From Halarcobacter sp. (lineage in GTDB: Bacteria; Campylobacterota; Campylobacteria; Campylobacterales; Arcobacteraceae), in NCBI GenBank assembly GCA_963676565.1, contig OY781089.1, positions 672,001 to 736,000 on the forward strand: DNA of 64,000 nucleotides, given 5' to 3'. The notes under the pieces were generated by a model. The model made no database searches. It was not told the origin of the DNA and saw nothing but the letters and a program-made list of their open reading frames with translations. Shown in pieces: positions 33,338 to 59,542 of this stretch (position 1 is its first letter; each line of letters begins with the position of its first letter). Both the position numbers and the translations under genes were made by a program.

Positions 33338-33381
33338 TTTTAATCTTTTTTAACCTTTCTACATAATCTCTCTAGACATAT

Positions 33382-33448: not shown

Positions 33449-33461
33449 AAAAGGAGAAGAG

Positions 33462-33632: not shown

Positions 33633-33730
33633 AATGGAAGAAAATGAAAAATTAGATATTAATGTACTTCAGAAAAGATTTAATGAATTAAAAAAAGAAG
33701 TTATTAAGAACACCCAAAATCCATCTTTAA

Positions 33731-34650: not shown

Positions 34651-34657
34651 ATTTCTC

Positions 34658-35344
34658 CTATGCTCTTAAAATTTTATAACTTATGGGTATCTCTATTACC
34701 CATTTATTTTTTCCCAATTCATCGGGAATTTGTTCAAACCTTGAAATATTGTTTAAAAGTTCAAGGGCTGCTTTATTTAATTTTTTATATTTTGAACTAT
34801 CTTTTAAAGAGATATTTTTAAAAGTTCCCTCTTTTGTTATTAGGAATGAGACAATAACTCTTCCTTGCTGTTTAAGTCTTTTTGCACTTTTAGGATAGAT
34901 CTTTTTATCCTCAATTAAACTTCTTAATCTATTTAAGTACTTATTTTTAATAACATTAAGCTCTTCAACTGAAACCATCTTCTCAACTTTTTTAGGCTTT
35001 ATAATCTTTTTTGTAACTTGTGGTTGAACTTTTGGAGTTGTTTTTTTTACAACTTTTTTATTGTTTTCTTTCTTTTTTATCTCTTTTTTTACAATTTTCT
35101 TTTTTGTTTTTTTCACAACTTTCTTAAGAACTTTTTGTTTAACAACTTTTTTTACTTCTTTTTTTTGCTCTACTTTTTTCACCTCAGGTTTTTTTAAAAT
35201 CACATTTTGTAGTGAAATCTTTTGTACTGTTTGAGGTTGTGTAACTACGACTTTTTCTATCCTCCTTTCTGTAGATGCAAATAAAGTAAAATGGAGAAAC
35301 AAAATAAAAAATACTGATGTAACCATTAGAAATTTATTTAACAT
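34658..35344 (-). CDS. tonB: energy transducer TonB
   Basis: TM helix with His, Lys/Val-rich linker, YPKSAKRLKQQGRV C-terminal domain. Confidence 0.88.
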   Translation of the reverse strand: MLNKFLMVTSVFFILFLHFTLFASTERRIEKVVVTQPQTVQKISLQNVILKKPEVKKVEQKKEVKKVVKQKVLKKVVKKTKKKIVKKEIKKKENNKKVVKKTTPKVQPQVTKKIIKPKKVEKMVSVEELNVIKNKYLNRLRSLIEDKKIYPKSAKRLKQQGRVIVSFLITKEGTFKNISLKDSSKYKKLNKAALELLNNISRFEQIPDELGKNKWVIEIPISYKILRA

Positions 35345-35365
35345 TTTGGAATTTTATATCAATAT

Positions 35366-35424
35366 TGATAATAGTTATCTTAATTGTAATAGAATTTATA
35401 GTATTTTCGATAATCATTATCATT
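35366..35424. promoter_or_regulatory. Fur boxes in the divergent tonB / hemP-receptor promoter region
   Basis: TGATAATAGTTATCT 35366-35380; CGATAATCATTATCATT 35408-35424. Confidence 0.8.
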
Positions 35425-35499
35425 GTTAATATAAAATTAAGATTTTTCTGTTAATATTCCGTTGGTTTTTAATTCAATTTCATTTAATATCGGAGAAAA

Positions 35500-35622
35500 A
35501 TGGGTAAAAATATTGATAGCAAAGAGATTTTTAAAGATAAAAATACAGTAATAATTGTTCATGATGGACAACAATACTATCTACGAATTACAAAATCAAA
35601 CAAATTAATTTTAACTAAATAA
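35500..35622 (+). CDS. hemP: hemin uptake protein HemP/HmuP (40 aa, missed by the ORF track)
   Basis: MGKNIDSKEIFKDKNTVIIVHDGQQYYLRITKSNKLILTK, ending in the family's Y.LR.T...KLILTK; GGAG RBS. Confidence 0.88.
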   Translation: MGKNIDSKEIFKDKNTVIIVHDGQQYYLRITKSNKLILTK

Positions 35623-35680
35623 AAAACTAGCCAGCCAATCTTAAATAGCCAGCAATAATATACACAATATAAGGATAAAT

Positions 35681-37678
35681 ATGGATATTAAGTTATCAAG
35701 ATTAACTGCTGCACTTTTAATTGCACAAGTTTCATTATTGGCAGAAAATACACAACTACAGGATTTAGAGGTGGTTACTTCAGCATTTGATGCACAAGTA
35801 AAATCAGTATCATCAAAACAACTTGAAGAGCAACAAGCAAGTGATATAAAAGATATTTTAAAATCACTTCCTAGTGTTATGGTAGATGGAAATGCTAGAT
35901 ATGGACAAAGGGTTTACGTAAGAGGTTTAGAAGATAAGTATGGAAATATTACTGTTGATGGAGCAAAACTTGGCGGGCAATTATTTCACCATTCAGGGGA
36001 TCAAACAATTGATGCTTCTCTTTTAAAAATCACATCTGTAGAACTTGGACCAAACTCTGCTCTTAGTGGAAGTGGTGTTATAAATGGTTCATTTGTTTAT
36101 GAAACAAAAGACCCAAGTGACTTTTTAAAAGAGGGTGAGAAATTTGGAGGGAAAGTTACTTTAGGATATCAATCTGGATATGAAAGAAAAAGTGGTACAG
36201 TCGCAGTATTTGGTAAGGTAAATGAAAAAATTGAATTTGTAGGAATTGGTACAATAGCTGCAGATGGTACACTAAGACTTGGAAATGGTGAAAAAGTAAA
36301 TTCTAAAGAGAGTAAATTAGAAAGTGGTTTAGCAAAACTTGTTTTTAAACCAAATGATTATAATAGTTTTAAACTATCATTTAATAAATATAAAGATGGT
36401 GGGAATAGACAATTAACTGGTGAAAAGATTGGTACTGATATTAATGATAACGATTATAATTCAATTTCAAGGGATACACTTACATTAAAATATAACTATA
36501 CTCCAGATAGTGAACTTGTAAATTTTGAAGCAAAGGTTTACACCAATAAACAATACCTTACAAGGGAAGCAACAACAGGTACAGATAGTACTTCAGGACT
36601 TACATATGAGGAGCCTGAAAGGGAAGATATAAATAGTTCTATGGGGTATGATTTTAGAAATAGTTCATTACTTGGAATTCATAAACTAACATATGGGACT
36701 GATTATACCCATGAAAAACAAGAGAAAAAAGCAGACTCATTAAGAGTTTATTCTGACTCATCTACAGAAGATTTAAATTTTGATGGAGGAGAAACTGATA
36801 ATTATGGTTTATATCTTGAAGATGAGATGGCTTATGATAAAATAACTTTAACTTTAGGTGCAAGATATGACCACTATAAATTAGGTGGTATTTATGATGG
36901 AACATTTAATCATCTATCTCCTAAAATGAAATTAAAATATCAGGCTACTGATAACTTATCTTTTAGAGCTGGTTATGGGCACATTTTTAAAGGTCCTGCA
37001 CTTAGTGAAACAATGTTGTTGTCTCCAACAGCAGTACAATCATCTAATACTAAAGCTCAAATAGGTAACAACTTTGAACTTGGATTTGATTACTCTTTAA
37101 CGAATACTTTAAATGCTGATGATGCAATTATTGGGTTTAATGTATACAGATATAATGTAGATAACTATTCTACACTTGCAAGAAATAGTGCTTTAGAGAG
37201 TCAAAGTGACGTTATAATTTGGGGAACAGAAACAATGTTTTCTTACCAAAAAGGAAAACTAGGTCTTAATGCAAGTCATACCTATACAGATGGAAGTCAA
37301 AAAGATTTAGCAACTGGGATTAGTTATGACCCAAAAACTGCAAAAATTCATGTATTTAAACTTGGAGCAAACTACAAAGTAACAAATGAATTTAAAGTAA
37401 ATTATAATGCTGAATTTGTACCTGGAAACAGTTGGATAAATTATTCATCAAGAAGTGGTCTTGTAACAGAGTATGATAGAAAAGCTTACGCAGTTCATGA
37501 TGTAAACTTCACATACAATCCAAATAGTATGAAAAACACTACATTTAACTTTGGTATTGGAAATATTTTTGATAAATCATATGTAAGACATAGTGCATTC
37601 CTTGCTCAATCATCAACAACTGACAAATCTTATGAAGTTGGAAGAAATTTTAAATTCCAAGTCTCTTATAGATTCTAA
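35681..37678 (+). CDS. TonB-dependent outer membrane receptor (heme/iron type)
   Basis: Signal peptide, plug (VRG...TVDG), NIFDKSY..H, GRNFK..VSYRF C-terminus. Confidence 0.88.
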   Translation: MDIKLSRLTAALLIAQVSLLAENTQLQDLEVVTSAFDAQVKSVSSKQLEEQQASDIKDILKSLPSVMVDGNARYGQRVYVRGLEDKYGNITVDGAKLGGQLFHHSGDQTIDASLLKITSVELGPNSALSGSGVINGSFVYETKDPSDFLKEGEKFGGKVTLGYQSGYERKSGTVAVFGKVNEKIEFVGIGTIAADGTLRLGNGEKVNSKESKLESGLAKLVFKPNDYNSFKLSFNKYKDGGNRQLTGEKIGTDINDNDYNSISRDTLTLKYNYTPDSELVNFEAKVYTNKQYLTREATTGTDSTSGLTYEEPEREDINSSMGYDFRNSSLLGIHKLTYGTDYTHEKQEKKADSLRVYSDSSTEDLNFDGGETDNYGLYLEDEMAYDKITLTLGARYDHYKLGGIYDGTFNHLSPKMKLKYQATDNLSFRAGYGHIFKGPALSETMLLSPTAVQSSNTKAQIGNNFELGFDYSLTNTLNADDAIIGFNVYRYNVDNYSTLARNSALESQSDVIIWGTETMFSYQKGKLGLNASHTYTDGSQKDLATGISYDPKTAKIHVFKLGANYKVTNEFKVNYNAEFVPGNSWINYSSRSGLVTEYDRKAYAVHDVNFTYNPNSMKNTTFNFGIGNIFDKSYVRHSAFLAQSSTTDKSYEVGRNFKFQVSYRF

Positions 37679-37693
37679 GAAATTGTACAAAGG

Positions 37694-39787
37694 ATGATAA
37701 TGAACAAAAAAGCAATAATCCTATTTTCTTTATTTAGTAGTCAGATTTTACTTTATGGTGAAAAGTTAGAAGAGGTTTATGTAACAGTTGAACAAGAGTC
37801 TTATTTTGAGAATCTCTCAACAAGTAGTACAAAAAGTGAAAAAAGTGATAACAAAACACCAAGTAGTATTATTGTTACAAAAGAGAATTTAATAAATGAC
37901 ATACAAGCACAAAGAATAGAAGATACATATGACTATACAACTGGTGTAACAAAGGTTGGTAAAAATGCTGATGCTATTATGATTAGAGGATTTGAAACTA
38001 GTCTAGAAAATTTAAAAGTAAATGGAATGTCAGGTTCTATTAGTAGAATGGGTTCTCCCTCAGCCTCAAATGTTGAAAAAATTGAAATTGTAAAGGGACC
38101 AAGTTCTGTATTATATGGTTCAATGGAACCAGGTGGAATGGTTAACATAATTACTAAAAAACCTTATGGAAAAGAATCTTATTCTATTGAAACATCATTT
38201 CAAACATATATGTCTGGTGTATCTTCTTTTGGGGAAGATAAAGGAATAAGTACAAGTTTTGATGCAAATATTCCTCTTGGTGAAAATTTATATTATAGAT
38301 TTATTACTGTATATGAAGATTTAAACTCTTATAGAGACAATGTAGATTTTCAAAATCTATATATCTATCCTAGCTTATTATGGAATGTAAATGATGAAAC
38401 ATCTTTATTAGTTTCAATGGAGTATGGAAAAGAAAAGGGTAGTGCAGATGATGGATTAGCTGTAATTAATCATGATATCTCTACAGCAGCAGCTATAAAT
38501 ACTGTTTATCAAGAAGAGAGTGATTTTGACAACGATGAAGGTTTTTCTCTTGATTTGAGTTTGGATCACTTTTTTAATGATAATTTATACTCAAAGTTTT
38601 CATGGAGAAGTGTACTTCATAATGATGAAAGAAAATTATATGAACAAACTGCCGTAAATTCAACAGCTGAAACTATTAAAAGAAGAAATAGACATCAATA
38701 CAATGAAAGAGATTGGCATAGTTTTGATGCAACATTAACTTATGATAGCAAAATATTAGGTTTAGAAAATAGTTTATTAAGTGGAATTTCTGGAACATAT
38801 AGAAAAACTGATTATGATAGGATTATTCAAGGAAGTAGTAATAATGTATCCCCTGATATTAGTATTTATAATCCAGTTTTAGGGGGAACAGCAGCTTCAA
38901 ATGCAGGGAATAGAAGACTGACAGAATATTATAGTTCAGGGCTTTACTTACAAGATAGTTTATCTTTAAATGAAAACTTAACACTTATTGGTGCTACAAG
39001 GTTTGATAGAACAAAAATTGACTTTATTTGTAAAAGTGGCTCTTGTAATGATGATTCAACAACATATTCTAGTAATGTAACTGGTTCACTTGGATTAATC
39101 TATAATCTAAATAGCATAGTTTCTTTTTATGGAAATATTGCACAAAGTTATAACCCAATAACTGCAGAGAGATTTGATATTAATGGACAAGGTTTAGAAA
39201 CAGAAAAATCAAATCAAATTGAATTGGGAACAAAACTAAATTTTTCAGAAAATCTAAATTCACATTTTGCTGTATATAAAATTCTAAAAGAAAATGTATC
39301 TGAAAAAGTTTCTGGACAAAGCTATTATGAAACAATTGGAGAAATTGAATCAAAAGGGTTTGAGACAGAAGTGCAATGGTTACCTACTAAAAATTGGCAA
39401 TTATCTTTAGGATACGCATATAATGAAGCAGAATACACATCAGGATCTAGCATAGGGAATCAACCAAAAAGTACTCCAAAAAATACTGCACAATTATTTA
39501 CAAGATATATCTTCCCAACAAAGATTTACAATGGTACTTTAGGTGTAACATCGGGAGTGGTTTTTAGAGATTCTATTTATACTAGTTCATCTAAAAATTC
39601 AAGGGTAAAGCTTCCTTCATACACTAGATATGATTTAGGATTAAGTTATACAAAAAGAGATTGGGAATTTAGTTTAAACATTGAAAATTTAACAGATAAA
39701 GTTTACTATGAATCAGGGACAAATGATTATAAAATTCATTCAGGCGAACCTAGAAAATTAACTTTAAGTGTTAGAAAAAGTTTTTAA
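37694..39787 (+). CDS. TonB-dependent siderophore receptor
   Basis: IRGF, VEKIEIVKGPSSVLYG..EPGG.VN, NLTDKVY, GEPR, C-terminal Phe. Confidence 0.9.
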   Translation: MIMNKKAIILFSLFSSQILLYGEKLEEVYVTVEQESYFENLSTSSTKSEKSDNKTPSSIIVTKENLINDIQAQRIEDTYDYTTGVTKVGKNADAIMIRGFETSLENLKVNGMSGSISRMGSPSASNVEKIEIVKGPSSVLYGSMEPGGMVNIITKKPYGKESYSIETSFQTYMSGVSSFGEDKGISTSFDANIPLGENLYYRFITVYEDLNSYRDNVDFQNLYIYPSLLWNVNDETSLLVSMEYGKEKGSADDGLAVINHDISTAAAINTVYQEESDFDNDEGFSLDLSLDHFFNDNLYSKFSWRSVLHNDERKLYEQTAVNSTAETIKRRNRHQYNERDWHSFDATLTYDSKILGLENSLLSGISGTYRKTDYDRIIQGSSNNVSPDISIYNPVLGGTAASNAGNRRLTEYYSSGLYLQDSLSLNENLTLIGATRFDRTKIDFICKSGSCNDDSTTYSSNVTGSLGLIYNLNSIVSFYGNIAQSYNPITAERFDINGQGLETEKSNQIELGTKLNFSENLNSHFAVYKILKENVSEKVSGQSYYETIGEIESKGFETEVQWLPTKNWQLSLGYAYNEAEYTSGSSIGNQPKSTPKNTAQLFTRYIFPTKIYNGTLGVTSGVVFRDSIYTSSSKNSRVKLPSYTRYDLGLSYTKRDWEFSLNIENLTDKVYYESGTNDYKIHSGEPRKLTLSVRKSF

Positions 39788-39798
39788 TAGGGATTTGA

Positions 39799-40890
39799 AT
39801 GTATAAAAAAGTTTGGTTTAAAATTCATTTATATTTAGGTTTAATTGCAGCAGTAATTTTATTTACTGTTGCAATAACAGGGGCAATCTTATCTTTTCAA
39901 AAAGAGATTATTTATTTAATAAATAAAGATAGTTTTGTTGTAAAAGTTGAAGAAAATAAATTAACAGAAAAACAAATACTTGAAAAGTTTCAAGAAAAAT
40001 TTCCAAGTGAAAAAATAAAAGCCTTATCATTTTTTAATGACCCAAAATCTTCTTATATAATAAACGTTGCTATAAAAGGTGCAAAAGGGAAAGCAGCTTT
40101 TAAAGGGAAAAACTATTATGTAAATCCTTATAATATGGAAATACTTCCTTTTGTAAAAGGGGAAGAGACTTTTAAATTTATTGAATTGATTCACAGAGGT
40201 TTAATTGCAGATAAAATTGGGAAACAAATAGTTGGAGTATCTGTAGTATGTTTACTTATTTTAATTGTAAGTGGAATAGTAATATATTGGGATAGGTTGA
40301 AAAAATCTTTTATAAAAAGTATTACGTTTAGTTTTAAATCAAAAAATAGAAAATTGTTATCAACTATGCATAGTTCAGTTGGAATGTGGATTATTCCCTT
40401 TTTATTATTGGCTAGTATTACTGGACTTACTTGGTCATATCCTTATTTTAAAGAAAATTTATTTACTTTATTAGGTGTCGAGAAAACTATAAAAAAAAGA
40501 TTTAAACAGGATATTTCAAATACAAGTAGTTTTAACGATATACAAACCGCTATTTACTTATTTAAAAAAAATATATCAAATTATGATAATGCAAGAATTA
40601 GTTTGATAGAAAATAAAAACGATATCTATACCTTGAGATATATAAAAAATAATCCTATTCATAATAGAGCTAGAAATAGTATTTCAATTGATATAAAGAA
40701 TCAAACAGTCTTAAAACATGAACAGTTTTCAAATCTTCCTTTTAATAAACAACTAACAAAAAGTATTTATCCTTTGCATACTGGTGAATATTTTGGTGTG
40801 ATTGGACAAACCTTGATGTTTCTATCAAGTTTAGCATTAGGCTTACTTTGTGTAACTGGGGTATGGATGTATATAAAAAGAAAATTTTAA
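39799..40890 (+). CDS. PepSY-associated TM helix protein (iron-reductase type)
   Basis: IHLYLGL, IHRG, MHSSVG, LHTGE heme-ligand His pattern. Confidence 0.85.
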   Translation: MYKKVWFKIHLYLGLIAAVILFTVAITGAILSFQKEIIYLINKDSFVVKVEENKLTEKQILEKFQEKFPSEKIKALSFFNDPKSSYIINVAIKGAKGKAAFKGKNYYVNPYNMEILPFVKGEETFKFIELIHRGLIADKIGKQIVGVSVVCLLILIVSGIVIYWDRLKKSFIKSITFSFKSKNRKLLSTMHSSVGMWIIPFLLLASITGLTWSYPYFKENLFTLLGVEKTIKKRFKQDISNTSSFNDIQTAIYLFKKNISNYDNARISLIENKNDIYTLRYIKNNPIHNRARNSISIDIKNQTVLKHEQFSNLPFNKQLTKSIYPLHTGEYFGVIGQTLMFLSSLALGLLCVTGVWMYIKRKF

Positions 40891-40896
40891 ATATTT

Positions 40897-40922
40897 GTGT
40901 ATCTACTTAAATGTGGATACAC
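40897..40922. terminator. hairpin between convergent genes
   Basis: GTGTATCTAC-ttaaat-GTGGATACAC. Confidence 0.55.
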
Positions 40923-40923
40923 C

Positions 40924-43900
40924 TTAAAAGAAACACACCTTATTTCTTCCACTTTTTTTAGCTTGGTATAAAGCATCATCAGCACGTTTTATCACAGTTT
41001 CAATTCCATCATATTCTGTTGTTACAGTAATCCCAAAACTTGCAGTCTTTTTACCAACTTTTTCAAAATTAAAATTTTCAATTTTTACTCTTAGTTTTTC
41101 AGCAAAAGCTGTTAGATTTTCTTTATTTGTTTTTGGAACAATTATTACAAACTCTTCACCACCCCATCTTCCAACATAGTCAGTTTCCCTAACAGAGTTT
41201 TTAAGTAAATTTGCAAAAGAGATTAAAATTTCATCTCCTACTAAATGTCCAAAATTATCATTTGTTGATTTAAAATAATCTATATCTAAGATACAAAATC
41301 CAAAACTACATTCAAACCTTCTACATCTAGTTATTTCATCTAATAAAATTTCATCTAGTTTTGTTCTGTTATAAACACCTGTAAGTTTATCTGTAATTGC
41401 TAGTTTTTCAAGTGCGATATTTTTATCTTCAATCTCTTTTTGAGCTTTTTTTAACAAGGTATTAGTTTTTTCAATCTCTTGTTTAGCTTTGTATATTTTT
41501 ATATTCCAATAAACAATTAAAAGAATAAAAAAAGTAGCTATAAAAATAACTTTCCATACAAGTGTATAGTCAGTGACTTTTTGTTGTTCTACAGCTATCC
41601 ATTTTCTAAAAATACGATCTTTGTTTTCTTTGCTAATACTTGTAATTGCTTTTTGAATAATACTAAAAAGCTCTTTTTCTGTTTTTATAGTTCCATAAGA
41701 TAAATTGTAATCAATGGGAAGTTTTCCAATAATTTTTAGATTATACATCTCATTTTTATCAATGGCATAACCAATAGAAGATGTTGAATCTATATAACCG
41801 TAAACTTTATCTTCTTGAACTAGTTTTAAACCCTCATCTATTGATTTAATTTGTATTATTTGAGTGTTTGGGTAGAACTCTTTTATCTCTTCTTCCACTG
41901 CAGAACTTCTTATAACTGCAAACTTATTGTCCTTTATCTCCTCAAAACTATCAATAAAAAATTTATCTTTTTTAGTAACAATTACATAAGGAATATTATA
42001 AATTGGATTAGTAAAGTTTAAATATTCTGATCTAGCTTTAGTTTTTTTAGATAAAGATAAAATCTCACATTTTTTGTTTTTAACAGATTCTAATGATTCT
42101 TCCCATGAGTTTGTCTTAACTAATGATATCTTTTTGGAAATTTTTTTAGAAATTAATTCCTTAATATCTGAGCCCATTCCAATATGTTTATTATTTTCAT
42201 CTATTGCTTCAAAGGGCATCCAGTTAGGAGATACGCATATTTTTAATTCATCTTTTTTGTTTAAATATTCTTTCTCTTTTGTAGTTAAAAGGCTGTTATT
42301 ATATGTTGGGGTTTCTTTTCTTGGTTGTATTAATCCTTTAGCGTTTAAGCCAATCCATTTATTTGTTAAATTTCTCCACTCTTGAGGCTCTATTGCTTCT
42401 AAGCCTTTTTGCATAATACTATATAGTAAAGGTTGATCAGTATTTACACCAAATCTTAAATCTTCACGATTTACAGTTTTTAAATTCAATTCATCAATTG
42501 CTTTGATATTTGATAATGCATTTTTCTTTATGTAATAGTTCATTGTTAAAAGATTCATTATGGCAATATCAATTTTTCCATAACTTAATGCTTTTGCCAT
42601 CTCTTCAATACTCTCATTCTCAACTAAGGTAATTCCATCCATCTCTCCCACTTCCTTAGCATAGAAAATACTTTTTTGAACACCAACTTTTTTACCTTTA
42701 AAACTTTCTAATCCTTTGTATTCACCAAAGTCATCACGTATAAAAATTAATGTTGGTATCTCATAATAAGGTTTTGTAAATAAAGTGAACTCTTCTCTTT
42801 CTTTTTTGTGTGAAATATCAGCAATGATTTTTGTTTCTTTGGCTTTAAAACGTTGAAGATTAGGAACCCATTGTCCTATAACTCTTTTAAATTTTAAACC
42901 TGTTTTCCCTTCTATTAAAGATAATATATCATCTACGAAACCTTGATAAACTCCATTTCTTTCAAAAGAAAATGGTGAAAAATCTTGCATTACAGATATA
43001 GGTACAACTTTATTTTTTTCAATATAATTTATCTCTTGTTTTGTTAAATCTGCTATATTTTCTATTTTTTGAAACAAGATAGATTGGTATTCATAAAAAG
43101 GTTTAGTCATACCCTTTTCAATAAAAAAGTCTCCCATTTTTTTTACTTTTTTATAATCTACACTCCCTATTGGATAAATATTTGGAAGCATCATTTTTTT
43201 TGTTTCTTGTGCCTCAAAAAGAAGGTGTCCTTTACTCTTTTTTTGAGTGTTGTATTTTTCTAAAATTAAATCTACAACTTCTTCTTCATGGCTTAGGGCA
43301 TATTCCCATCCTTTATTTGAAGCTTCAATAAAATTCTTTACAAGTTGGGGATTATTTTCAACAAATTCTTTAGATGAAAATAGATTTACATCATACATCT
43401 CAATACCATAATTGTTTGGGTCTAAGATATTGTGTCTAATCCCATCTTTTCTCAAAATATAAGGTTCATTTGTTAGAAAAGATGAGTAAGCATCAACTTT
43501 TTTATCTATAAAATCTTGGATGTTAAAAGATGAGGGAATAATTTCAATATCATTTATATTTAAACCAAACAGTTGAAACATTTGATGATAATTTACACTA
43601 TCAAAATCAGACCTAGGAATCATTAGTTTTTTACCGGCTAATTCTGAAGGTAAAATTATATCACTTTGGGTGATTATTGCTAAAGGGGATCTTTTAAAGT
43701 AATTAGCCAATAAAACTAAAGGCCTTCCTTTCATTGCTTGCTCTATTACACTACTACCCCAAATACCAAACTCTTTTTCACCATTTATTACCTCTTGTGC
43801 AATGTCAATATCTGCATCATATTCAAAAAGTTCTACGTCAAGTCCAATATCTTTATAATATCCAACTTCCTTCGCTACATAAAAACCTGCAAATTCAAAT

Positions 43901-44004
43901 TGATGTTTCCACTGTAAACGTAAAGATACTTTTTCTAAAGTAGTTGCATGAAGTGTAAGAAAAAAGAAAAAAGAAATTAGTAATATTTTTAAAAGCTTTT
44001 TCAC
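40924..44004 (-). CDS. diguanylate cyclase with NMT1/THI5-like and two periplasmic solute-binding domains
   Basis: LQWKHQFEFAGFY.A, two PF-containing SBP domains, TM helix, TDKLTG.YNR, RWGGEEF. Confidence 0.9.
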   Translation of the reverse strand: MKKLLKILLISFFFFLTLHATTLEKVSLRLQWKHQFEFAGFYVAKEVGYYKDIGLDVELFEYDADIDIAQEVINGEKEFGIWGSSVIEQAMKGRPLVLLANYFKRSPLAIITQSDIILPSELAGKKLMIPRSDFDSVNYHQMFQLFGLNINDIEIIPSSFNIQDFIDKKVDAYSSFLTNEPYILRKDGIRHNILDPNNYGIEMYDVNLFSSKEFVENNPQLVKNFIEASNKGWEYALSHEEEVVDLILEKYNTQKKSKGHLLFEAQETKKMMLPNIYPIGSVDYKKVKKMGDFFIEKGMTKPFYEYQSILFQKIENIADLTKQEINYIEKNKVVPISVMQDFSPFSFERNGVYQGFVDDILSLIEGKTGLKFKRVIGQWVPNLQRFKAKETKIIADISHKKEREEFTLFTKPYYEIPTLIFIRDDFGEYKGLESFKGKKVGVQKSIFYAKEVGEMDGITLVENESIEEMAKALSYGKIDIAIMNLLTMNYYIKKNALSNIKAIDELNLKTVNREDLRFGVNTDQPLLYSIMQKGLEAIEPQEWRNLTNKWIGLNAKGLIQPRKETPTYNNSLLTTKEKEYLNKKDELKICVSPNWMPFEAIDENNKHIGMGSDIKELISKKISKKISLVKTNSWEESLESVKNKKCEILSLSKKTKARSEYLNFTNPIYNIPYVIVTKKDKFFIDSFEEIKDNKFAVIRSSAVEEEIKEFYPNTQIIQIKSIDEGLKLVQEDKVYGYIDSTSSIGYAIDKNEMYNLKIIGKLPIDYNLSYGTIKTEKELFSIIQKAITSISKENKDRIFRKWIAVEQQKVTDYTLVWKVIFIATFFILLIVYWNIKIYKAKQEIEKTNTLLKKAQKEIEDKNIALEKLAITDKLTGVYNRTKLDEILLDEITRCRRFECSFGFCILDIDYFKSTNDNFGHLVGDEILISFANLLKNSVRETDYVGRWGGEEFVIIVPKTNKENLTAFAEKLRVKIENFNFEKVGKKTASFGITVTTEYDGIETVIKRADDALYQAKKSGRNKVCFF

Positions 44005-44078
44005 TAATACTCCAAGGGTGATTTATTTTATTTTATAATAAATAAGATAAAGATATAGAAAGAAATGATTTTTGCTTT

Positions 44079-44095
44079 AGGAACACTTCTTGCAT
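44079..44095 (+). promoter_or_regulatory. sigma54 promoter of the nifN operon
   Basis: aGG-AACACTTCTT-GCat. Confidence 0.85.
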
Positions 44096-44123
44096 CTACT
44101 CTTAAAACTCTTTAGGAATAGAT

Positions 44124-45410
44124 ATGGAAGCAATTAGTTCAAAACCATTACAGCTTAATCCAATTAAACTATCTCAACCAATGGGCGCGATGCTTTGTTT
44201 TTTAGGTATAAAAAACTGTATGCCTCTTATGCATGGTGCGCAGGGGTGTGCTTCCTTTTCAAAAGTTTTCTTCACAAGACACTTTAATGATCCAATTGCT
44301 GTTCAAACAACTGCAGTTAGTGATATTACAGCAGTTATTGATGGTGGAGATTATTCTATATCTGAATCAATAAAAAACATTACGAAAAAAGTAAAACCAG
44401 ATTTAGTAGGTCTTTTTACAACTGGTCTCACAGAAACAAAAGGGGATGATATAAGAGGTGCTTCCCTTTTAGTTAAAGACCAACAAGATATGGTTTATGT
44501 AAATACTCCAGATTTTGAGGGTTCTATTGAAAGTGGTTTTGCAAAATCTGTTGAAGCTATAATTGATCAAAAAGTAGAAGAAACAGAAAAGATTGATAAA
44601 ACAAAAGTAACAATTATTCCAAATGTAAATCTAAAGCCAATAGAGGTTGAAAAAATCAAAGATACTATTTCTTTATTTGGTTATGAGGCTTTAGCCCTTC
44701 CTGATTTAAGTGATTCTCTTGATGGTCACCTAGGATTAAAACAAGGAGCTTTAACTTCAGGTGGAATAAGTTTTGATGAAATAAAAAACCTAGCTTCCTC
44801 TTCCCTTGTGATTTCAATTGGAAGTTCTGTAAAAAAAGCAGGGGAAAAACTCAAAGAAAAAAATGAAAATATAAAACTTTTTCATTTTGATTCACTTGGT
44901 GGATTAGAGGAAAGTGATAGGTTTTTTAAAGTTTTATGTAAAGAAAAAAATATATCACAACCCCATCCAAGTATTGTAAGATGGAGAAAAAGGTTACAAG
45001 ATGCCTTATTAGATTGCCATTTTGCAATAGGAAGCTCATCTGTTGTTTTAGCCCTAGAGCCAGATCAGTGTATCTCAGTAGCTAATACAATTATTGAAGC
45101 TGGAGCAAACATAAAAGCAATTGTTACAACCCATAAAAACGACTTATTAGATGAAATTGAATGTGAAAATTTATTAATTGGTGATTTTGAAGATGTTGAA
45201 AAATATTTAAGTGATAGTGAAGTTTTAATCTCAAGTTTTCATGGGGAAAGATATACAATGAAACACCATAAGGCTTTGATGTTAAGAGGTTTTCCAGATT
45301 TTGAAGGATTAGGGAATCAGCTTAAAAATGATTGTTTATATGAAGGAAGTTCATATCTACTTTTTGAACTTGCTAATTTAATTAATACCCACAGGCATCA
45401 TGGAGCATAA
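44124..45410 (+). CDS. nifN: FeMo-co scaffold subunit NifN
   Basis: NPIKLSQPMGA, HGAQGCASF, RHFNDPI, TGLTETKGDD, PDLSDSLDGH. Confidence 0.94.
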   Translation: MEAISSKPLQLNPIKLSQPMGAMLCFLGIKNCMPLMHGAQGCASFSKVFFTRHFNDPIAVQTTAVSDITAVIDGGDYSISESIKNITKKVKPDLVGLFTTGLTETKGDDIRGASLLVKDQQDMVYVNTPDFEGSIESGFAKSVEAIIDQKVEETEKIDKTKVTIIPNVNLKPIEVEKIKDTISLFGYEALALPDLSDSLDGHLGLKQGALTSGGISFDEIKNLASSSLVISIGSSVKKAGEKLKEKNENIKLFHFDSLGGLEESDRFFKVLCKEKNISQPHPSIVRWRKRLQDALLDCHFAIGSSSVVLALEPDQCISVANTIIEAGANIKAIVTTHKNDLLDEIECENLLIGDFEDVEKYLSDSEVLISSFHGERYTMKHHKALMLRGFPDFEGLGNQLKNDCLYEGSSYLLFELANLINTHRHHGA

Positions 45411-45789: not shown

Positions 45790-46311
45790 ATGGAAGTAAC
45801 TTATAAAAAAGAGGTTTTCAGCCTAGGAAAAAGAGAAAGAAAAGTTGAGAGTGAAGCTCCAGCAGTTAGAGTTAAAATGATAAATGAAGATACAAAAGTG
45901 ATTGGTATGATGGCACCAAAAATCCAAGTTATGATTACCTTACCTTGTATAAAAGCTTATAACAATGAGCTTCATAATATCTTAACAGAGTATTCATCAA
46001 AAATATTGGTTTATATTGTTACAAAAAGCAATGATGATAATTTAAAAAAGATAAAAGAAGAGTACTCAATAGAGGATGGATTTATCTCAAATGATTTTAA
46101 AAATTTTTCCCTTAAATTTGGAGTAAATATGAGTGATGAACTTATTGCAAAGTCTATTTTTATTGTTGATAAAGAAGGCATCATAAAATACAAAGAGATA
46201 CCTTCAAATATTGAAACAAGTTTTGATTTAGAAAAGTTCAAAACTACTCTTACCGAAGTTGTAAACTTCAAACAAAAGGGTCATACCCATGAAAATTGGA
46301 TGGGTGTATAA
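45790..46311 (+). CDS. Tpx-like redoxin-fold protein lacking the PxxxTxxC motif
   Basis: VTYK...KV.SEAP N-terminus and FGV......AKSIFIVDKEGIIKYKEI C-terminus resemble Tpx. Confidence 0.68.
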   Translation: MEVTYKKEVFSLGKRERKVESEAPAVRVKMINEDTKVIGMMAPKIQVMITLPCIKAYNNELHNILTEYSSKILVYIVTKSNDDNLKKIKEEYSIEDGFISNDFKNFSLKFGVNMSDELIAKSIFIVDKEGIIKYKEIPSNIETSFDLEKFKTTLTEVVNFKQKGHTHENWMGV

Positions 46312-46757
46312 TGTCTTTTTCTGATAAAACTAGAATGTGGTTATCTGCTAATGAATATGATTTAAATAATCTTAGTAAACAAGGAAAACATGGTAATTCT
46401 GCTGTAATGAAAGCAGCAAGGGAAGGTGAAACCCATATTGTAAGAGAGTTGATTGGATTAGGAGCAAATTTAGATCAAAAAAATGTTGATGGAAATTCTG
46501 CTTTGTGGAATGCATGTTTTGCTAACTCTTATGATTGTTTTTATGCCCTTATTGATGGGGGAATAGATATAAATTCACAAAATGTTAATGGTGTAACATC
46601 TTTAATGTATTGTGCAAGTGCAGGAAAAGAGGATTTTGTAAAACTCTTACTTGAATGTAATGCCAAAGCAGATTTAGAAAACCTTGATGGATTTAAGGCA
46701 ATTGATTTAGCTGTAACTCCTAAAATATACAAAATGTTAAAAGCTGCAACAAAATAA
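46311..46757 (+). CDS. ankyrin repeat protein
   Basis: GNSAVMKAA, GNSALWNAC, GVTSLMYCA repeats; TAATG coupling with the upstream stop. Confidence 0.9.
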   Translation: MSFSDKTRMWLSANEYDLNNLSKQGKHGNSAVMKAAREGETHIVRELIGLGANLDQKNVDGNSALWNACFANSYDCFYALIDGGIDINSQNVNGVTSLMYCASAGKEDFVKLLLECNAKADLENLDGFKAIDLAVTPKIYKMLKAATK

Positions 46758-46763
46758 AACTTT

Positions 46764-48017
46764 ATGCAAATTTTCCATGATAAAACTGAAATAACGCTCA
46801 AAAACTCTTTTGAGCAAACTGCTTTTATTGATTGGAGAACGCAACCTAGAAATTATAAGAGGTATCCAGAGTTTTTTAGAAGATATAAAATTGATGAGTT
46901 TGATGAGCTTAAATTTATAAAAAATTTTGGAAAAATTACCCAGACAAAAAAGTATGGTAAAGAGGAAGTAAGCCTTCGAACAAATCCCAGTGCAGGTGGG
47001 CTTTATCCTTGTGAGGTTTATATTCAAATTAGAGGTGTGAAAGGATTTTTAAGTGGTATTTATCACTATGAACCTTTAGAAGACAATCTTGTTTTAATCC
47101 ATGAATTAAGCAATGATGGACTGGAATACTATTTTGAAAAAAATAAACAATATAGATTTGTAATATTAATTAGTAATGTATACTTTAGAAGCTCTTGGAA
47201 ATATGAAAATAGAGCGATTAGATATTTACTTCTAGATACTGGTCACCAAATTGGTTCTATATATTCTTCTTTGAAACTTGAAGATATTGATTTTAAAATA
47301 GAATTTGAATTTGACAGAAACCTTATAAATGAATCTTTCGGTTTTGAGGGGTTTGAGTTTTTTCAAGTTGCAATATTAAGTGAGTTTTATAAAGAAAAAG
47401 AGACAAAAGCTTTAAGGGAAAACCTTGTAAATGTTAGTGCCTGTGATTATCAAATAAGAAATAGTTTTATTGATAATTTTATAAACCATTTAGAACATGA
47501 AAACTTCTCTTCAACAATACATTTTGATTTTTTAGAAGAACTAGAGAAAAAGAATTTAGAGGATTCAATAAATAAAAGAAGGTCAATTAGAGCTTTTAAA
47601 CAAGAAGCTATAACAAAAAATGATTTTAATCTTATCACTAAAGATATATTTGAATATTCCCACTCTTTTGGAATTGAAATATACATTATAGTCAATAATA
47701 TTATGGGTTTACAAAGTGGTATTTACAAAAATGTAACATTGTTAGAAGAGGGTAACTTTATAGAACATTCAAAAAAACTTGCCTTTAATCAAAAACTTGG
47801 CGGCGCTAGTTGTTTTACACTTTTTTTTACTTCAAAAGTAGATTCCAATTATATACAAAACTATATCTTATGTGGTTTCTTAGCTCATATGCTAAGTATA
47901 AGAGCTATAAATTTAGATATCGCATCAAGTGGAATTGGGGCATATTTTGATGATGAATGTAAAAAAACATTTAAAACCCAAAACAATATTTTATATTTGC
48001 AGGCAATTGGAAAATGA
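46764..48017 (+). CDS. SagB-type nitroreductase family protein (two domains)
   Basis: LRTNPSAGGLYP.E, WKYENRAIRY..LD.GH, RRSIRAF, GIGAYFDD. Confidence 0.85.
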   Translation: MQIFHDKTEITLKNSFEQTAFIDWRTQPRNYKRYPEFFRRYKIDEFDELKFIKNFGKITQTKKYGKEEVSLRTNPSAGGLYPCEVYIQIRGVKGFLSGIYHYEPLEDNLVLIHELSNDGLEYYFEKNKQYRFVILISNVYFRSSWKYENRAIRYLLLDTGHQIGSIYSSLKLEDIDFKIEFEFDRNLINESFGFEGFEFFQVAILSEFYKEKETKALRENLVNVSACDYQIRNSFIDNFINHLEHENFSSTIHFDFLEELEKKNLEDSINKRRSIRAFKQEAITKNDFNLITKDIFEYSHSFGIEIYIIVNNIMGLQSGIYKNVTLLEEGNFIEHSKKLAFNQKLGGASCFTLFFTSKVDSNYIQNYILCGFLAHMLSIRAINLDIASSGIGAYFDDECKKTFKTQNNILYLQAIGK

Positions 48018-51540: not shown

Positions 51541-52794
51541 ATGAGTATGGCACCTACATTATCAACATCAGTTGCACAAAAACAAAATCTTAATTTATCA
51601 CTTAAAATGTGGTTACCAATGTTGCAGTCATCACTGCAAGACCTAGAGAAACACCTAACAAATGTATCTTATGAAAACCCATTTTTAGAGATTAAAAAGC
51701 CAAAAGAGTTTTATAATAACTTTATGCCACAAGGAACAAGTGGAGAGTTTATTGAATCTTTAGCTTTATATGATGAATCATTACATGATAAAATCAGTGA
51801 ACAAATTTGTGCACCAAATTTTCCAACACCAAATTCACAAAAAGTTGCAATGGAGATTTTATGTGACATAAATGAAGATGGATATTTTGATGGAGATATT
51901 GAAAAGATTGCTGTAACATGTGGAGTATATAAAGAGTATGTTGAATCAATTAGACAAAGGTTTTCAAGACTAGAGCCATCTGGAGTTGCTTCAATGAACT
52001 TATCAGAATCATTTGAATTTCAATTAGATGCTTGTGATAAAGATATTGATGATGAGCTTTATAATTTTATTAAAAAAGTTGTAAAAGATATTGCTCACTT
52101 AGATAAATATGCTGCTCACCATAGATTTGATGATGCAAAGGATGTTATAAAATACTTTAATAATCCACCAGCAATCAATTATCTAAATACAAATACTCAG
52201 GTTATTCCTGATTTTTATGTGGATATTGGTGAAGATATTAATGTTAAGATTAATCACGCTTATTATCCTGATATTGAGGTAAAAGATCCTTTTTCTTCGA
52301 AGAATCAAAGTATAAAAGATAAACTAAAAGAAGCAAGGGATTTAGTAAATCTTTTAAATCTAAGAAAATCAACTTTATACAAAATTGTACTGTTAATTGT
52401 GGAGAAACAAATTTCATTTTTTGTTGGAGGAGAACTTAAACCTTTTTCAATGCAAGAATTAGCAGGAGAGCTAGGTTTTGCAGAATCAACAATAAGTAGA
52501 GCAGTTGCAAATAAACATATAGAGTGTAACCTTGGAATTTTTCCATTAAAACATTTTTTCACTAATGCTGTAAATGATAAAGATTTATCTTCATCTCAAA
52601 TTAAAAGTTATATTAAATCTCTAGTTGAATATGAAAAAAGAGAAACACCACTTACAGATCAACAGATATTAGAAATGATTTATGAAAAGTTTGATTTGAA
52701 AATGGTTAGAAGAACTATCACTAAATATAGAAAGATGTTAAATATTCCCTCTTCAAAAGAGAGAAAGAAACTTTATAAGGTAGAAAACCTATAA
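51541..52794 (+). CDS. rpoN: RNA polymerase sigma-54 factor
   Basis: Gln/Leu-rich region I, ESTISRAVANK HTH, RpoN box VRRTITKYR. Confidence 0.95.
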   Translation: MSMAPTLSTSVAQKQNLNLSLKMWLPMLQSSLQDLEKHLTNVSYENPFLEIKKPKEFYNNFMPQGTSGEFIESLALYDESLHDKISEQICAPNFPTPNSQKVAMEILCDINEDGYFDGDIEKIAVTCGVYKEYVESIRQRFSRLEPSGVASMNLSESFEFQLDACDKDIDDELYNFIKKVVKDIAHLDKYAAHHRFDDAKDVIKYFNNPPAINYLNTNTQVIPDFYVDIGEDINVKINHAYYPDIEVKDPFSSKNQSIKDKLKEARDLVNLLNLRKSTLYKIVLLIVEKQISFFVGGELKPFSMQELAGELGFAESTISRAVANKHIECNLGIFPLKHFFTNAVNDKDLSSSQIKSYIKSLVEYEKRETPLTDQQILEMIYEKFDLKMVRRTITKYRKMLNIPSSKERKKLYKVENL

Positions 52795-55026: not shown

Positions 55027-55043
55027 TGGAACACTTAGTGCAT
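55027..55043 (+). promoter_or_regulatory. sigma54 promoter of nifH
   Basis: tGG-AACACTTAGT-GCat. Confidence 0.87.
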
Positions 55044-55064: not shown

Positions 55065-55991
<927 letters not shown>

Positions 55992-55997
55992 GCTTAG

Positions 55998-56024
55998 CCT
56001 TTAAAAGTCATTGATTTTTAAAGG
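55998..56024 (+). other. stem-loop after nifH (mRNA stabiliser or attenuator)
   Basis: CCTTTAAAAGTCA-t-TGATTTTTAAAGG. Confidence 0.55.
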
Positions 56025-56076
56025 GACTTTGTCCCAAATAAATAAGATTAAAAAAATAAAAAAATAGGAGAAGAAA

Positions 56077-56436
56077 ATGTTTATATGTGGATACCACTTT
56101 CCAGCAAGTGAAGGAAATGATGTAGCTTTTGATAAAGTTGTAGAAAAAATTGAAGATGGTTTAGAGGCAACAGGTAAAACTGTAACTCTTACAAGTGAAA
56201 CTAGAGAGGGTGTATTATTAGAAACTCTTGAAGTATCTGAAGGTACATTTCTTCATAAAGCACTAGTTGATTACTATGTAAACACTGAGTGTAAAGAAAA
56301 AGATGGTTTCAAAATGATGTATTATACAAACAAATACCAAATTGCTGAAATCTCTAAATCTGTTGATGGTGAAGCTACAAAAGAGCTTTGTAAAAAATTA
56401 GATGACATGAATCTATACAGGGTAAAAGTAGCTTAA
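56077..56436 (+). CDS. unknown 119-aa protein between nifH and nifD
   Basis: AGGAG RBS, same strand and operon position; no family recognised. Confidence 0.85.
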
Positions 56437-56468: not shown

Positions 56469-57926
56469 ATGGGACCAGAAACATTAGAGAGTCTACAACA
56501 AGAAGCTATTGCTGAGGTACTTGAAGCATATCCAGCAAAAGCTGCAAAAAATAGAGCAAAACACTTAGGTGTTGATACACCAGAAGGTGTAAAAGGTGCT
56601 TGTGATAAAACAAGATCAAACAAACAAACAGTACCAGGAGTTATGTCGCAAAGAGGTTGTGCTTATGCGGGTTCTAAAGGGGTTGTTTGGGGACCAATTA
56701 AAGATATGATTCATATTTCTCACGGACCTATTGGATGTGGACAATATTCAAGAGGTGGTAGAAGAAACTATTATATTGGTACTACAGGTGTTGATACGTT
56801 TGTTACAATGAATTTCTCAACTGATTTTAACGAAAAAGATATCGTATTTGGTGGTGATAAAAAATTAAAGAAAGCTTTAGAAGAGATTGATGAATTATTC
56901 CCACTAAATAATGGTGTATCTATTCAGTCAGAGTGTCCAATTGGATTAATTGGGGACGATATTCAAGCAGTTGCAAAAGTTCACAAAAAAGAAACAGGTA
57001 ATCAAACAATTGCTGTTTCATGTGAAGGGTTTAGAGGGGTTTCACAATCTCTTGGTCACCACATTGCAAACGATATGATTAGAGATCACGTTATGCCAGA
57101 TGCATCATATAGAAAAGACTTAGATTCTACAGAATATGATGTATCAATTATTGGAGACTATAACATCGGTGGAGATGCTTGGTCTACAAGAATTATCTTA
57201 GAAGAGATGGGATTAAGAGTTATCTCTCAATGGTCTGGTGATGCTACTTATAAAGAGATTGCAAATGGACCAAAAGCAAAATTAAACTTACTTCATTGTT
57301 ATAGATCTATGAACTATATTTCAAGACACATGGAGCAAGAGTTTGGTATTCCTTGGATGGAATATAACTTCTTTGGACCAAGTAAAACTACTGAGTCTAT
57401 TAGAAAAATCGCTTCATTCTTCGATGAATCAATCCAAGAAAAAGCTGAAGCTGTAATTGCTAAATATACTAAAATGACTGATGAAGTTATTGCTAAATAT
57501 AAGCCAAAATTAGAGGGTAAAAAAGTTATGCTTTATGTTGGTGGATTAAGACCAAGACACGTTATTGGTGCTTATGAAGATTTAGGAATGGAAGTTATTG
57601 GTACTGGTTATGAGTTCGGACATGGTGATGATTATAAAAGAACTAAAGAAGATTTAGGAAGATCAACAGTTATCTATGACGATGCTAACGAATATGAGTT
57701 AGAACAATTTGTTAAAAAATTAAGACCAGACTTAGTTGCAGCTGGGGTAAAAGAGAAATATGTATTCCAAAAAATGGGTTTACCATTTAGACAAATGCAC
57801 TCTTGGGATTATTCTGGACCATACCATGGGTATGATGCATTTGCAATTTTTGCAAAAGATATGGATTTAGCTATGAACTCTCCTGTATGGGCTCATACTA
57901 CAGCTCCATGGGAAAAAGAAGCGTAA
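56469..57926 (+). CDS. nifD: nitrogenase MoFe protein alpha chain
   Basis: RGCAYAG, HGPIGC, SECPIG P-cluster Cys; HCYRS and QMHSWDY FeMo-co ligands. Confidence 0.98.
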
Positions 57927-57937
57927 GGAGAAGTGTT

Positions 57938-59485
57938 ATGCAAGACGTAGAAAATATAGTAAACGGACAAAAACTATTCTTAAAACCTGAATATCAACAA
58001 GTTTTAAAGAATAAGAAAGAATTTGAAGGGGCTGCTGGTGCAGTTGCTCCTGAAAAAGTAGCAGAAATTGCTGAGTGGACAAAATCTTGGGATTATAGAG
58101 AGAAAAACTTGAGCCGAGAAGCAATTACTGTAAATCCAGCTAAAGCATGTCAACCTTTAGGTGCTGTTATGGTTGGATTAGGTTTTGAAAACACTATGCC
58201 TTATGTTCATGGTTCTCATGGATGTGTTGCATATTTTAGAACATATTTTACTAGACACTTTAAAGAACCAACTCCATGCGTTTCTGACTCAATGTCTGAA
58301 TCTGCAGCGGTATTTGGTGGTTTAGCAAATATGAAAGATGGTTTAAGAAACTGTAATGCTTTATATAAACCTGAAATGATTGCAGTATCTACTACTTGTA
58401 TGGCAGAAGTTATCGGTGATGACTTAAATGCCTTTATTACAGGTGCTAGAGAAGATGCTGAAGGTGAATTAGATAATATCGAAATCCCTTATGCACATAC
58501 TCCTTCATTTGTTGGGTCTCATATTACAGGTTATGATAATATGATGAAATCTACTTTAGAACAGTTAAACCCAACTAAATCTGAAGCAGTTTTAGATGAA
58601 GAAAGAATTAATATCATTCCAGGTTTTGAACCATATTTAGGATCTTTAAGAGAAATCAAAAAAATCTCTAAATTATTTGGTGATAAAATCATTATGATTG
58701 GTGACCATGAAGAGCAATGGGATACAGGAGCTGGTAAATATTCTATGTACGCAGGTGGTACTTCAATTGCAGATGCTAAAACAGCAATTAATGCAAAAGC
58801 AACTATCTCTTTACAAAAATATTCAACAGTTGCAACTGCTAAAACTATTAAAAACAAATGGAAACAAGACTTTGCTACTTGTAACCCAATTGGATTAAGT
58901 GGTACTGATGCCTTTGTTATGAAGTTAGCTGAATTAACTGGTAAAGATGTTCCTGAAGAATTAAAAGTTCAAAGAGCTAGATTAGTTGATGCAATGCAAG
59001 ATTCATATCCATATATGCATGGTAAGAAAATTGCAATCTGGGGAGATCCTGATTTCCTATTAGGAATGGTTTCATTCTTAATTGAAATGGGTGCGATTCC
59101 AACTCATATCGTATGTCACAATGCTCCAAGAAAAGGTTGGGCTGATGATATGAATGCTATCATTGAAAAATCAAATGCAAAAGATGAAATCAATGTATGG
59201 CCAGGTAAAGACCTTTGGGCATTAAGATCGTTATTATTTACAGAGCCAGTAGACTTTATGATTGGTAATGTTTATGGTAAAGAACTTTACAGAGATACAA
59301 AAATTCCATTAATCAGAATTGGTTTCCCAATTTTTGATAGACACCATTTACATAGATACTCAATGAGTGGATATGAAGGTGCATTAAATCTATTAACATG
59401 GATTACAAATGGTATTTTAGATCAACTAGATGAAGAGACTAAAGATATTGCCGAAACAGATTATTTCTTCGATTCTGTAAGATAA
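57938..59485 (+). CDS. nifK: nitrogenase MoFe protein beta chain
   Basis: NPAKACQPLGA, GSHGCVAY, TTCMAEVIGDD, GFPIFDRHH; start moved to the ATG after AAGGAG. Confidence 0.98.
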   Translation: MQDVENIVNGQKLFLKPEYQQVLKNKKEFEGAAGAVAPEKVAEIAEWTKSWDYREKNLSREAITVNPAKACQPLGAVMVGLGFENTMPYVHGSHGCVAYFRTYFTRHFKEPTPCVSDSMSESAAVFGGLANMKDGLRNCNALYKPEMIAVSTTCMAEVIGDDLNAFITGAREDAEGELDNIEIPYAHTPSFVGSHITGYDNMMKSTLEQLNPTKSEAVLDEERINIIPGFEPYLGSLREIKKISKLFGDKIIMIGDHEEQWDTGAGKYSMYAGGTSIADAKTAINAKATISLQKYSTVATAKTIKNKWKQDFATCNPIGLSGTDAFVMKLAELTGKDVPEELKVQRARLVDAMQDSYPYMHGKKIAIWGDPDFLLGMVSFLIEMGAIPTHIVCHNAPRKGWADDMNAIIEKSNAKDEINVWPGKDLWALRSLLFTEPVDFMIGNVYGKELYRDTKIPLIRIGFPIFDRHHLHRYSMSGYEGALNLLTWITNGILDQLDEETKDIAETDYFFDSVR

Positions 59486-59507: not shown

Positions 59508-59538
59508 AACTAGAGGGATTCCCTTCTAGTTTTTTTTA
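59508..59538 (+). terminator. rho-independent terminator of the nifHDK operon
   Basis: AACTAGAGGG-att-CCCTTCTAGTT followed by a T run. Confidence 0.8.
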
Positions 59539-59542
59539 ATAT

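Follow-up and report, generated by a model that had tools for sequence, protein, structure and literature searches.

ORF119, a 119-codon open reading frame between nifH and nifD of a Halarcobacter sp., probably encodes an accessory, lineage-specific partner that is predicted to bind NifH, the Fe protein of nitrogenase. We put the probability of this reading, which draws on sequence comparisons and structural models, at about 0.6. The gene lies in a stretch of 64,000 nt (contig OY781089.1, positions 672,001 to 736,000), hereafter called the window. The first-pass annotation had seen in it a candidate for a novel accessory subunit, chaperone or regulator, and this view held up: ORF119 belongs to no known family, pairs one-to-one with group-I-type nifD, keeps a fixed place in the gene order, decays together with the nif genes and passes a co-folding screen with NifH.

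The gene and its operon

The coordinates of ORF119, its own AGGAG ribosome binding site inside the structural operon and its nifH and nifD flanks were all verified (Table 1), and a GGAG-containing site precedes the start codon in all five distant orthologues examined. Since the sole terminator-like site that a terminator scan found on the plus strand from nifH to the end of nifK follows nifK, and since the stem-loops after nifH lack a T-tract (the scan made no terminator call there), nifH, ORF119, nifD and nifK look like one transcription unit. The element upstream of nifH would, judging by its motif, function as a sigma-54-type promoter. A NifA-like gene (509 bits, just below the cut-off) lies 4.7 kb past the window end.

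Table 1. Features of the nif region of the window
Feature	Position	Strand	Details
rpoN	51541..52794		
Sigma-54-type promoter-like element, 5' of nifH	55027..55042	+	TGG-N9-(G)TGCA; read from sequence
nifH, nitrogenase Fe protein	55083..55991	+	302 aa; TIGR01287, 425.8 bits, cut-off 394
Lineage-specific NifH insertion, residues 84-95	55332..55367	+	12 residues; gap in alignment to solved NifH chains
Predicted ORF119 docking surface, NifH residues 201-269	55683..55889	+	co-fold interface
Two small stem-loops right after nifH, no T-tract	55998..56035	+	RNA fold of 55985-56080: -16.9 kcal/mol, z -2.5
Ribosome binding site of ORF119	56066..56070	+	AGGAG, 6 nt 5' of ATG; read from sequence
ORF119	56077..56436	+	119 aa, ATG start, TAA stop; intergenic between nifH and nifD
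nifD	56469..57926	+	TIGR01282, 818.9 bits, cut-off 654
nifK	57887..59485	+	TIGR01286, 754.6 bits
Intrinsic-terminator-like hairpin and T-run after nifK	59508..59541	+	hairpin 59508-59531, 10-pair stem, then TTTTTTAATA

The window also carries nifV, nifB, a nifX-like gene, nifE, nifN, nifX, a gene for a NifX-associated protein, a flavodoxin gene, nifW, a 2Fe-2S ferredoxin gene and rpoN, with modE, modA and modB located 3' of nifK. Within it, about 12 kb separate nifE (30906-32243) from nifN (44124-45407) (region 30906-45407), and the genes between them encode an AI-2E transporter, ExbB, ExbD and TonB, two TonB-dependent receptors and a 1026-aa GGDEF protein. Unusual genes of the nif region (46296-48014; 20441-21436) encode an ankyrin-repeat protein, a SagB-type dehydrogenase domain protein beside nifN and nifX, and a leucine-rich-repeat protein near nifV.

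ORF119 is a real gene and more than a chance ORF, because a word-indexed search among 5.8 billion proteins matches it to 276 clusters at E<=0.01, because its dN/dS is 0.08-0.21 (Nei-Gojobori, eight orthologue comparisons) and because its motifs are kept in distant orthologues at about 35-40% identity. These motifs are an N-terminal M-F-x-x-G-x-H-F-P-A-x-x-G-N and a central Y-T-N-K-Y-Q, together with K94, D97 and D109. Among the matches listed (120 of the 276 clusters), lengths range from 119 to 148 aa and named rows read 'hypothetical' or 'uncharacterized', the exception being two JGI rows whose transporter label is evidently unrelated. Alignments and synteny define a family of proteins of about 116-125 aa that carry both motifs and are encoded between nifH and nifD, ORF119 among them; by these sequence features it represents a new Campylobacterota nif-operon protein family that is narrow and tied to one nif lineage.

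The three cysteines (residues 4, 72 and 105) and the FICGYHFP motif that had been singled out are indeed present, the N-terminus being MFICGYHFP, but the cysteines did not prove to be conserved. Residue 72 is Cys in only 28 of 84 distinct orthologues, and in a 15-sequence alignment Cys4 is replaced by Leu in the three most distant members, while Cys105 is nearly, not fully, invariant. A Cys-liganded cluster is thus unlikely, and we rejected the idea of a metal-cluster protein built on the three cysteines.

Codon comparisons indicate that the ORF119 protein sequence is under purifying selection, the nifH dN/dS at the same loci being 0.05-0.12. The synonymous divergence (dS) of ORF119 is 2-4 times that of nifH in six of the eight comparisons and lower in the two closest. 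This hints at codon selection weaker than that on nifH, and expression may lie below the need of a strict 1:1 subunit. With regard to transcription, three metatranscriptome runs were mapped at >=85% likeness (DNA can be present in such libraries), and contigs of relatives covered nifH, the conserved ends of ORF119, and nifD. One 5400-nt contig (X2) ran from the ORF119 start into nifD at a depth of 9.2, with the nifH contig at 9.1, and elsewhere (X13) depth was 121 in the 5' bin of ORF119, 188 in that of nifH and 195 in a nifD bin. A raw-read RNA run (X20) yielded 0 reads; it came from an oligo-dT library and was thus no test. The contigs lend weak support to transcription of ORF119 and are no measure of its level. 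Nitrogenase-like expression, which the position of the gene had been taken to imply, is therefore weakly backed overall: an operon free of internal terminators and the RNA contigs of relatives over ORF119 speak for it, whereas the elevated dS in six of eight comparisons speaks against it.

Profile searches, suggested along with the first-pass annotation, matched ORF119 to no characterised family. At E<=1, Pfam returned no family, only two sub-threshold chance rows, and NCBIfam returned none; NifT, NifW, NifZ, NifX/NafY and CowN were all without a match in these two collections, and separate nifX, NifX-associated and nifW genes lie elsewhere in the window. Searches by structure gave no usable lead to a fold-derived function either. 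The AlphaFold2 model (pLDDT 88.7, pTM 0.83) is alpha/beta with a long helix at 83-108. A PDB sequence-profile search found nothing below E 0.8, Foldseek of the model against the PDB gave 0 matches at E<=0.001, and the best rows of the ESM Atlas were clusters without annotation at 0.90 or less. The only structural neighbours were N-terminal domains of long-form DapD (PDB 2rij, 3r5a), the best of 48,161 chains in VIA-align (Z 5.8, rmsd 4.2 A, 103 aligned residues; Foldseek E 0.024, TM 0.42). The Z score is under 8, the range of common arrangements, the identity to ORF119 is 8-13%, and DapD offers no functional link.

An ORF119 profile run against 1.84 billion representative proteins gave 31 matches at E<=0.001, about 10 of them full-length clusters and the rest fragments or chimeric calls. 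Remote homologues beyond the phylum were rejected. Four giant repeat proteins (P0129, P0138, P0146 and P0150) are each met by many weak profile stretches, and another long multi-stretch match (P0145; 996 aa, 8 stretches) has no SdrD_B domain in a Pfam scan. ORF119 residues 5-63, in its N-terminal half, weakly resemble the beginnings of all SdrD B-like repeats in the giant surface proteins (best BLASTP E 6e-4, 35% over 63 aa, in P0146), a likeness of uncertain meaning that could reflect convergence or a trace of origin. An identity of ORF119 as an SdrD B-like repeat (PF17210) was rejected, there being no Pfam match at E<=1 and no D-x-N-x-N-G-x-Q-D loop visible in the aligned segment.

Linkage to nif clusters

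Among 61 relatives, ORF119 was found in 22 and a nifD-like gene in 24. One genome with a nifD-like gene and no scored ORF119 (G057) has a contig that ends 220 nt 5' of nifD, and the last 22 residues of an orthologue are still encoded there; another genome (G051) has a nifI1/nifI2-type cluster without ORF119, with two PII genes (123-125 aa) between H and D and a longer NifD below the cut-off. Profile searches for ORF119 and nifD in a sample of 401 genomes drawn evenly from the phylum found ORF119 in 50 and nifD-like matches in 51 (49 over the cut-off), the two sets differing by G051 alone. All 49 genomes with nifD over the cut-off carry ORF119, and the 50th carrier (G338) has a decayed nif cluster. 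ORF119 was never met away from nif in the 401 and 61 genomes; it is thus exclusively linked to nif, in group-I-type clusters, and one-to-one with nifD.

The gene order is likewise fixed across the Campylobacterota diazotrophs, where the first-pass annotation had called for a synteny check. All 17 genome loci with full context read nifH-ORF119-nifD, as do 79 of 80 species loci, the 80th starting 77 nt 5' of ORF119. These species loci were taken from 185,579 species genomes, a scan of which returned 215 stretches encoding an ORF119 relative; the 80 kept have Campylobacterota or unclassified labels, two being labelled only 'bacterium'. ORF119 is the single ORF between nifH and nifD in the window and in 79 of the 80 loci.

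In the decayed cluster (L104, G338:C1:1433500-1441000, in a 1.6-Mb genome), nifH is split, nifD and nifK are in pieces, and a remnant of ORF119 without the YTNKYQ motif is fused in frame behind a NifH fragment. ORF119 here decays jointly with the nif genes.

Marinarcus sp. PCE-1 harbors two copies of ORF119, 11 kb apart (loci L060 and L064, the latter at NZ_CP182357.1 791324-796680), which differ in 2 of 119 residues. The copy in L064 is followed by an anfD-like gene (519 aa), a G-like gene (122 aa) and a K-like gene, and the anfD-like protein is 35% identical to NifD. Promoter and nifH of the two loci are 92.6% identical over 1292 nt and ORF119 is 96.4% identical over 393 nt, with homology ending exactly at the ORF119 stop codon. 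Because homology is confined to this segment, the copied unit is promoter-nifH-ORF119, which favours a link between ORF119 and the Fe protein. The copy is young, however: at 93-96% nucleotide identity the duplication is recent, and that its second copy is intact is therefore little guide to selection beside anf genes. A second D gene, of the alternative type, occurs in five more genomes of the phylum sample, each of which nevertheless has a single ORF119 match. In one of the five (G058; L102, G058:C1:1422500-1431000), anfDGK is adjoined by neither an H gene nor ORF119, and a serine-acetyltransferase-like gene lies upstream of the anfD/G/K-like cluster.

The duplication bears on another reading, in which ORF119 would bind the MoFe protein NifDK, or both components, and would work in the manner of NifI1/NifI2, CowN or the Shethna protein, turning nitrogenase off, or shielding it, when ammonium, CO or O2 is present. 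ORF119 occupies the very slot held by nifI1 and nifI2 in G051, and the host bacteria live at oxic-anoxic interfaces. Sulfurimonas isolates, in the account of PMC12029903, fix N2 with O2 as an electron acceptor. DraT, moreover, gave no match in the source genome, a point of little weight since control genomes were equally silent. The module duplicated in PCE-1, however, consists of H and ORF119, not of ORF119 and D, and the D protein that it serves there shares only 35% identity with NifD; co-folding, described below, places ORF119 on NifH with all controls at 0.00; and the protein has no PII, ferredoxin or CowN signature and no conserved set of cysteines. We therefore regard binding to NifDK as quite improbable.

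Predicted docking on the Fe protein

Co-folding with NifH, which had also been proposed at the outset, passed its controls. Two NifH chains (21-row alignment) and one ORF119 chain (21 rows from the same loci), with NifH the sole partner modelled, gave scores of 0.86, 0.86 and 0.85, compared to 0.00 for the best of three controls. The mark used is reached by 116 of 157 solved complexes and by 2 of 215 mismatched pairs, a calibration from which our custom alignments and 2+1 chain set-up depart. The runs agree in >=93% of contacts, with a partner pLDDT of >=90. Since ORF119 has no solved relative, the pass is not the memory of a like complex.

The predicted contacts on one copy of NifH are residues 201, 203, 208, 212, 215-216, 219-221, 223-230, 248, 250, 253-254, 256-257, 260-261 and 264-269; those of ORF119 are residues 1-2, 5, 7, 9-10, 14-15, 43-44, 71-73, 80, 82-84, 87, 109, 111 and 113. 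The near-invariant N-terminal and YTNKYQ motifs of ORF119 thus touch NifH 201-269 in the models. In 84 distinct NifH/ORF119 pairs, the contact columns of ORF119 have a mean entropy of 0.505 bits against 0.898 for the rest, and the contact residues M1, F2, H7, P9, A10, T84, Y87 and D109 are invariant. The co-fold score and this conservation are not fully independent, because the model was fed the same alignments.

The NifH side of the interface is distinctive as well. NifH proteins linked to ORF119 carry A201, M203, Y208, S/N229, K256, E257, R260, D266 and K268, nine contact residues common to sequences labelled Arcobacteraceae, Wolinella, Lebetimonas and Sulfurospirillum and differing in both the nifI-type NifH of G051 and a solved NifH; Tyr replaces Asp at 208, for example, and Ser, Asn or His replaces Asp at 229. 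At position 253, 80 of 84 linked NifH proteins have a hydrophobic residue in place of Asp, with Glu or Lys in more distant Wolinella- and Sulfurospirillum-labelled proteins. This substitution check is likewise not fully independent, since the model saw the same alignments.

ORF119-linked NifH also carries an insertion of 8-12 residues, found in all 21 examined. It is present too in all 45 of 68 NifH matches where a regex found both flanking motifs, the named sources being Campylobacterales, Sulfurimonas, Wolinella, Lebetimonas and Sulfurospirillum. We rejected the insertion (residues 84-95 here) as a docking site for ORF119, because it is absent from the predicted contacts, and treat it as a co-occurring lineage marker only. 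Two NifH clusters labelled 'Marichromatium sp.' (P0213 and P0216, from MAGs) are of the Campylobacterota type, sharing both the insertion and the interface residues, which could reflect a binning error or gene transfer.

According to the preferred reading, in which ORF119 is a partner of the Fe protein, it would be made from the same nifH-ORF119-nifDK transcript and would have a stoichiometric role, one copy being predicted to attach laterally to each NifH monomer, on its outer face. The ORF119 strand around Y82-Y83-T84 would run along the NifH strand I223-P227, and the N-terminal motif (M1, F2, G5, H7, P9, A10, N14) would pack on NifH helix 254-268. With an offset of 15, taken from the alignment to solved NifH, the predicted site corresponds to about residues 186-254 in Azotobacter. 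In the Azotobacter Fe protein with MgADP bound, the adenine is held by two loops, near Asn185 and near Pro212-Asp214. The predicted site flanks both, and on this basis ORF119 may affect nucleotide handling. The docking site would also lie away from the surface that meets NifDK. The residues that the review PMC9571451 names in its treatment of NifDK docking, Arg100, Glu112, Arg140 and Lys143 in Azotobacter numbering, correspond to about 115-158 here and fall outside the predicted interface, so ORF119 need not block catalysis. ORF119 would thus ride on NifH rather than block it, and might stabilise the Fe protein, tune its nucleotide cycle, or both.

A bolder version of the preferred reading is that the Fe protein of these bacteria is NifH2-(ORF119)2, with ORF119 capping the outer wall of each nucleotide pocket and gating ATP/ADP exchange, as a means of post-translational control in microaerophiles. 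We consider this version unlikely. A search of the PDB by sequence profile and of the literature turned up no solved structure or paper with a partner on the lateral face of the Fe protein, and we know of no such partner.

The predicted binding to NifH would equally suit a transient maturation or folding factor, a functional analogue of the prolyl isomerase NifM. On NifH, the last residues of the predicted site, 264-269, come shortly before a conserved I-P-x-P turn, only a few positions away, to which NifM dependence in Azotobacter was reportedly mapped. A genome-wide search of the source genome found no NifM over the cut-off, the best being generic isomerase-domain matches of <=66 bits, similar to those that appear in 7 of the 14 control genomes without nif. 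Many diazotrophs manage without NifM, however, and ORF119 has neither an isomerase or chaperone domain nor a fold match. It also sits inside the structural operon with a strong ribosome binding site and no terminator, whereas catalytic chaperones are usually encoded elsewhere. We thus consider a maturation role distinctly unlikely.

At longer odds still, ORF119 might be a conserved passenger that acts off nitrogenase, be it a small regulator, an RNA- or ligand-binding protein, or a spacer for nifD translational coupling or mRNA stability. The evidence for an interaction is prediction, and ORF119 evolves several times faster than NifH and NifD, with 35-60% identity across the order versus 75-92%. 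On the other hand, selection on ORF119 acts on the protein sequence, its invariant surface motifs coincide with the high-confidence predicted interface, and its confinement to nif clusters holds throughout the 401 and 61 genomes.

Comparison with known nitrogenase partners and significance

NifI1 and NifI2, switch-off proteins of the PII family, have their genes between nifH and nifD in organisms that include methanogens, clostridia and Chlorobi. ORF119 shares with them the operon slot, a similar size (119 aa versus 123-125 aa in G051), apparent co-transcription with the structural genes and a likely binding to a nitrogenase component. Nevertheless, we rejected a PII identity, since Pfam and NCBIfam gave no P-II profile match, in agreement with the original remark that no PII signature is visible, and since there is a single ORF rather than a nifI1/nifI2 pair. 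ORF119 also differs in its predicted order of secondary structure, in its predicted partner (NifH, versus NifDK for NifI1/NifI2) and in its occurrence in group-I-type clusters, the sole nifI-type cluster of the sample being without it.

The delta subunits AnfG and VnfG are, like ORF119, small extra proteins from a structural operon, and they bind a nitrogenase component stoichiometrically. They are encoded between D and K and bind D, whereas ORF119 lies between H and D and, as had been noted from the sequence, bears no resemblance to them, their profiles being absent from its Pfam and NCBIfam matches; this identity was therefore rejected. In addition, L064 has its own 122-aa G-like ORF after the anfD-like gene, besides the ORF119 paralogue before it. 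NifM of Azotobacter and Klebsiella is also dedicated to NifH, but we rejected it as the identity of ORF119, which is half its size, lies in the structural operon and has no PpiC-type prolyl isomerase (rotamase) domain (TIGR02933) in Pfam or NCBIfam searches.

FeSII and CowN are described in PMC13474568 as small non-catalytic nitrogenase binders with a modulating or protecting function. ORF119 has no sequence or clear fold similarity to either. FeSII (Shethna protein II) holds a Cys-liganded 2Fe-2S cluster, and this identity was rejected because ORF119 has three cysteines, none of them invariant, against four ligands, and no ferredoxin family match. CowN, for its part, binds NifDK.

We found no paper on a gene between nifH and nifD in Campylobacterota or Epsilonproteobacteria, although supplementary gene tables could list the ORF as hypothetical. 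In their descriptions of Campylobacterota nif clusters, PMC12029903 and another genome paper treat the operon as plain nifHDK. Campylobacterota (Arcobacteraceae, Sulfurimonas, Sulfurovum and Sulfurospirillum) are reported, in PMC12029903 among others, to play an important part in dark, chemolithoautotrophic N2 fixation in sediment, mangrove and vent habitats.

The partners of nitrogenase are few, and each of them, NifI, DraT/G, FeSII, CowN, NifM and the G subunits, has been instructive on its control or protection. If the NifH2-(ORF119)2 arrangement were true, these bacteria would have a built-in nucleotide-exchange regulator, responsive to energy, O2 or nitrogen, of a kind not known for any nitrogenase, and ORF119 would have to be co-expressed for the enzyme to work elsewhere. 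More generally, ORF119 may be an unrecognised part of how N2-fixing Campylobacterota run or control nitrogen fixation. If it is needed for the stability or cycling of the Fe protein, it would be a missing component when these nitrogenases are expressed or assayed, a marker gene of this nif lineage and a handle on nitrogenase regulation in microaerophiles.
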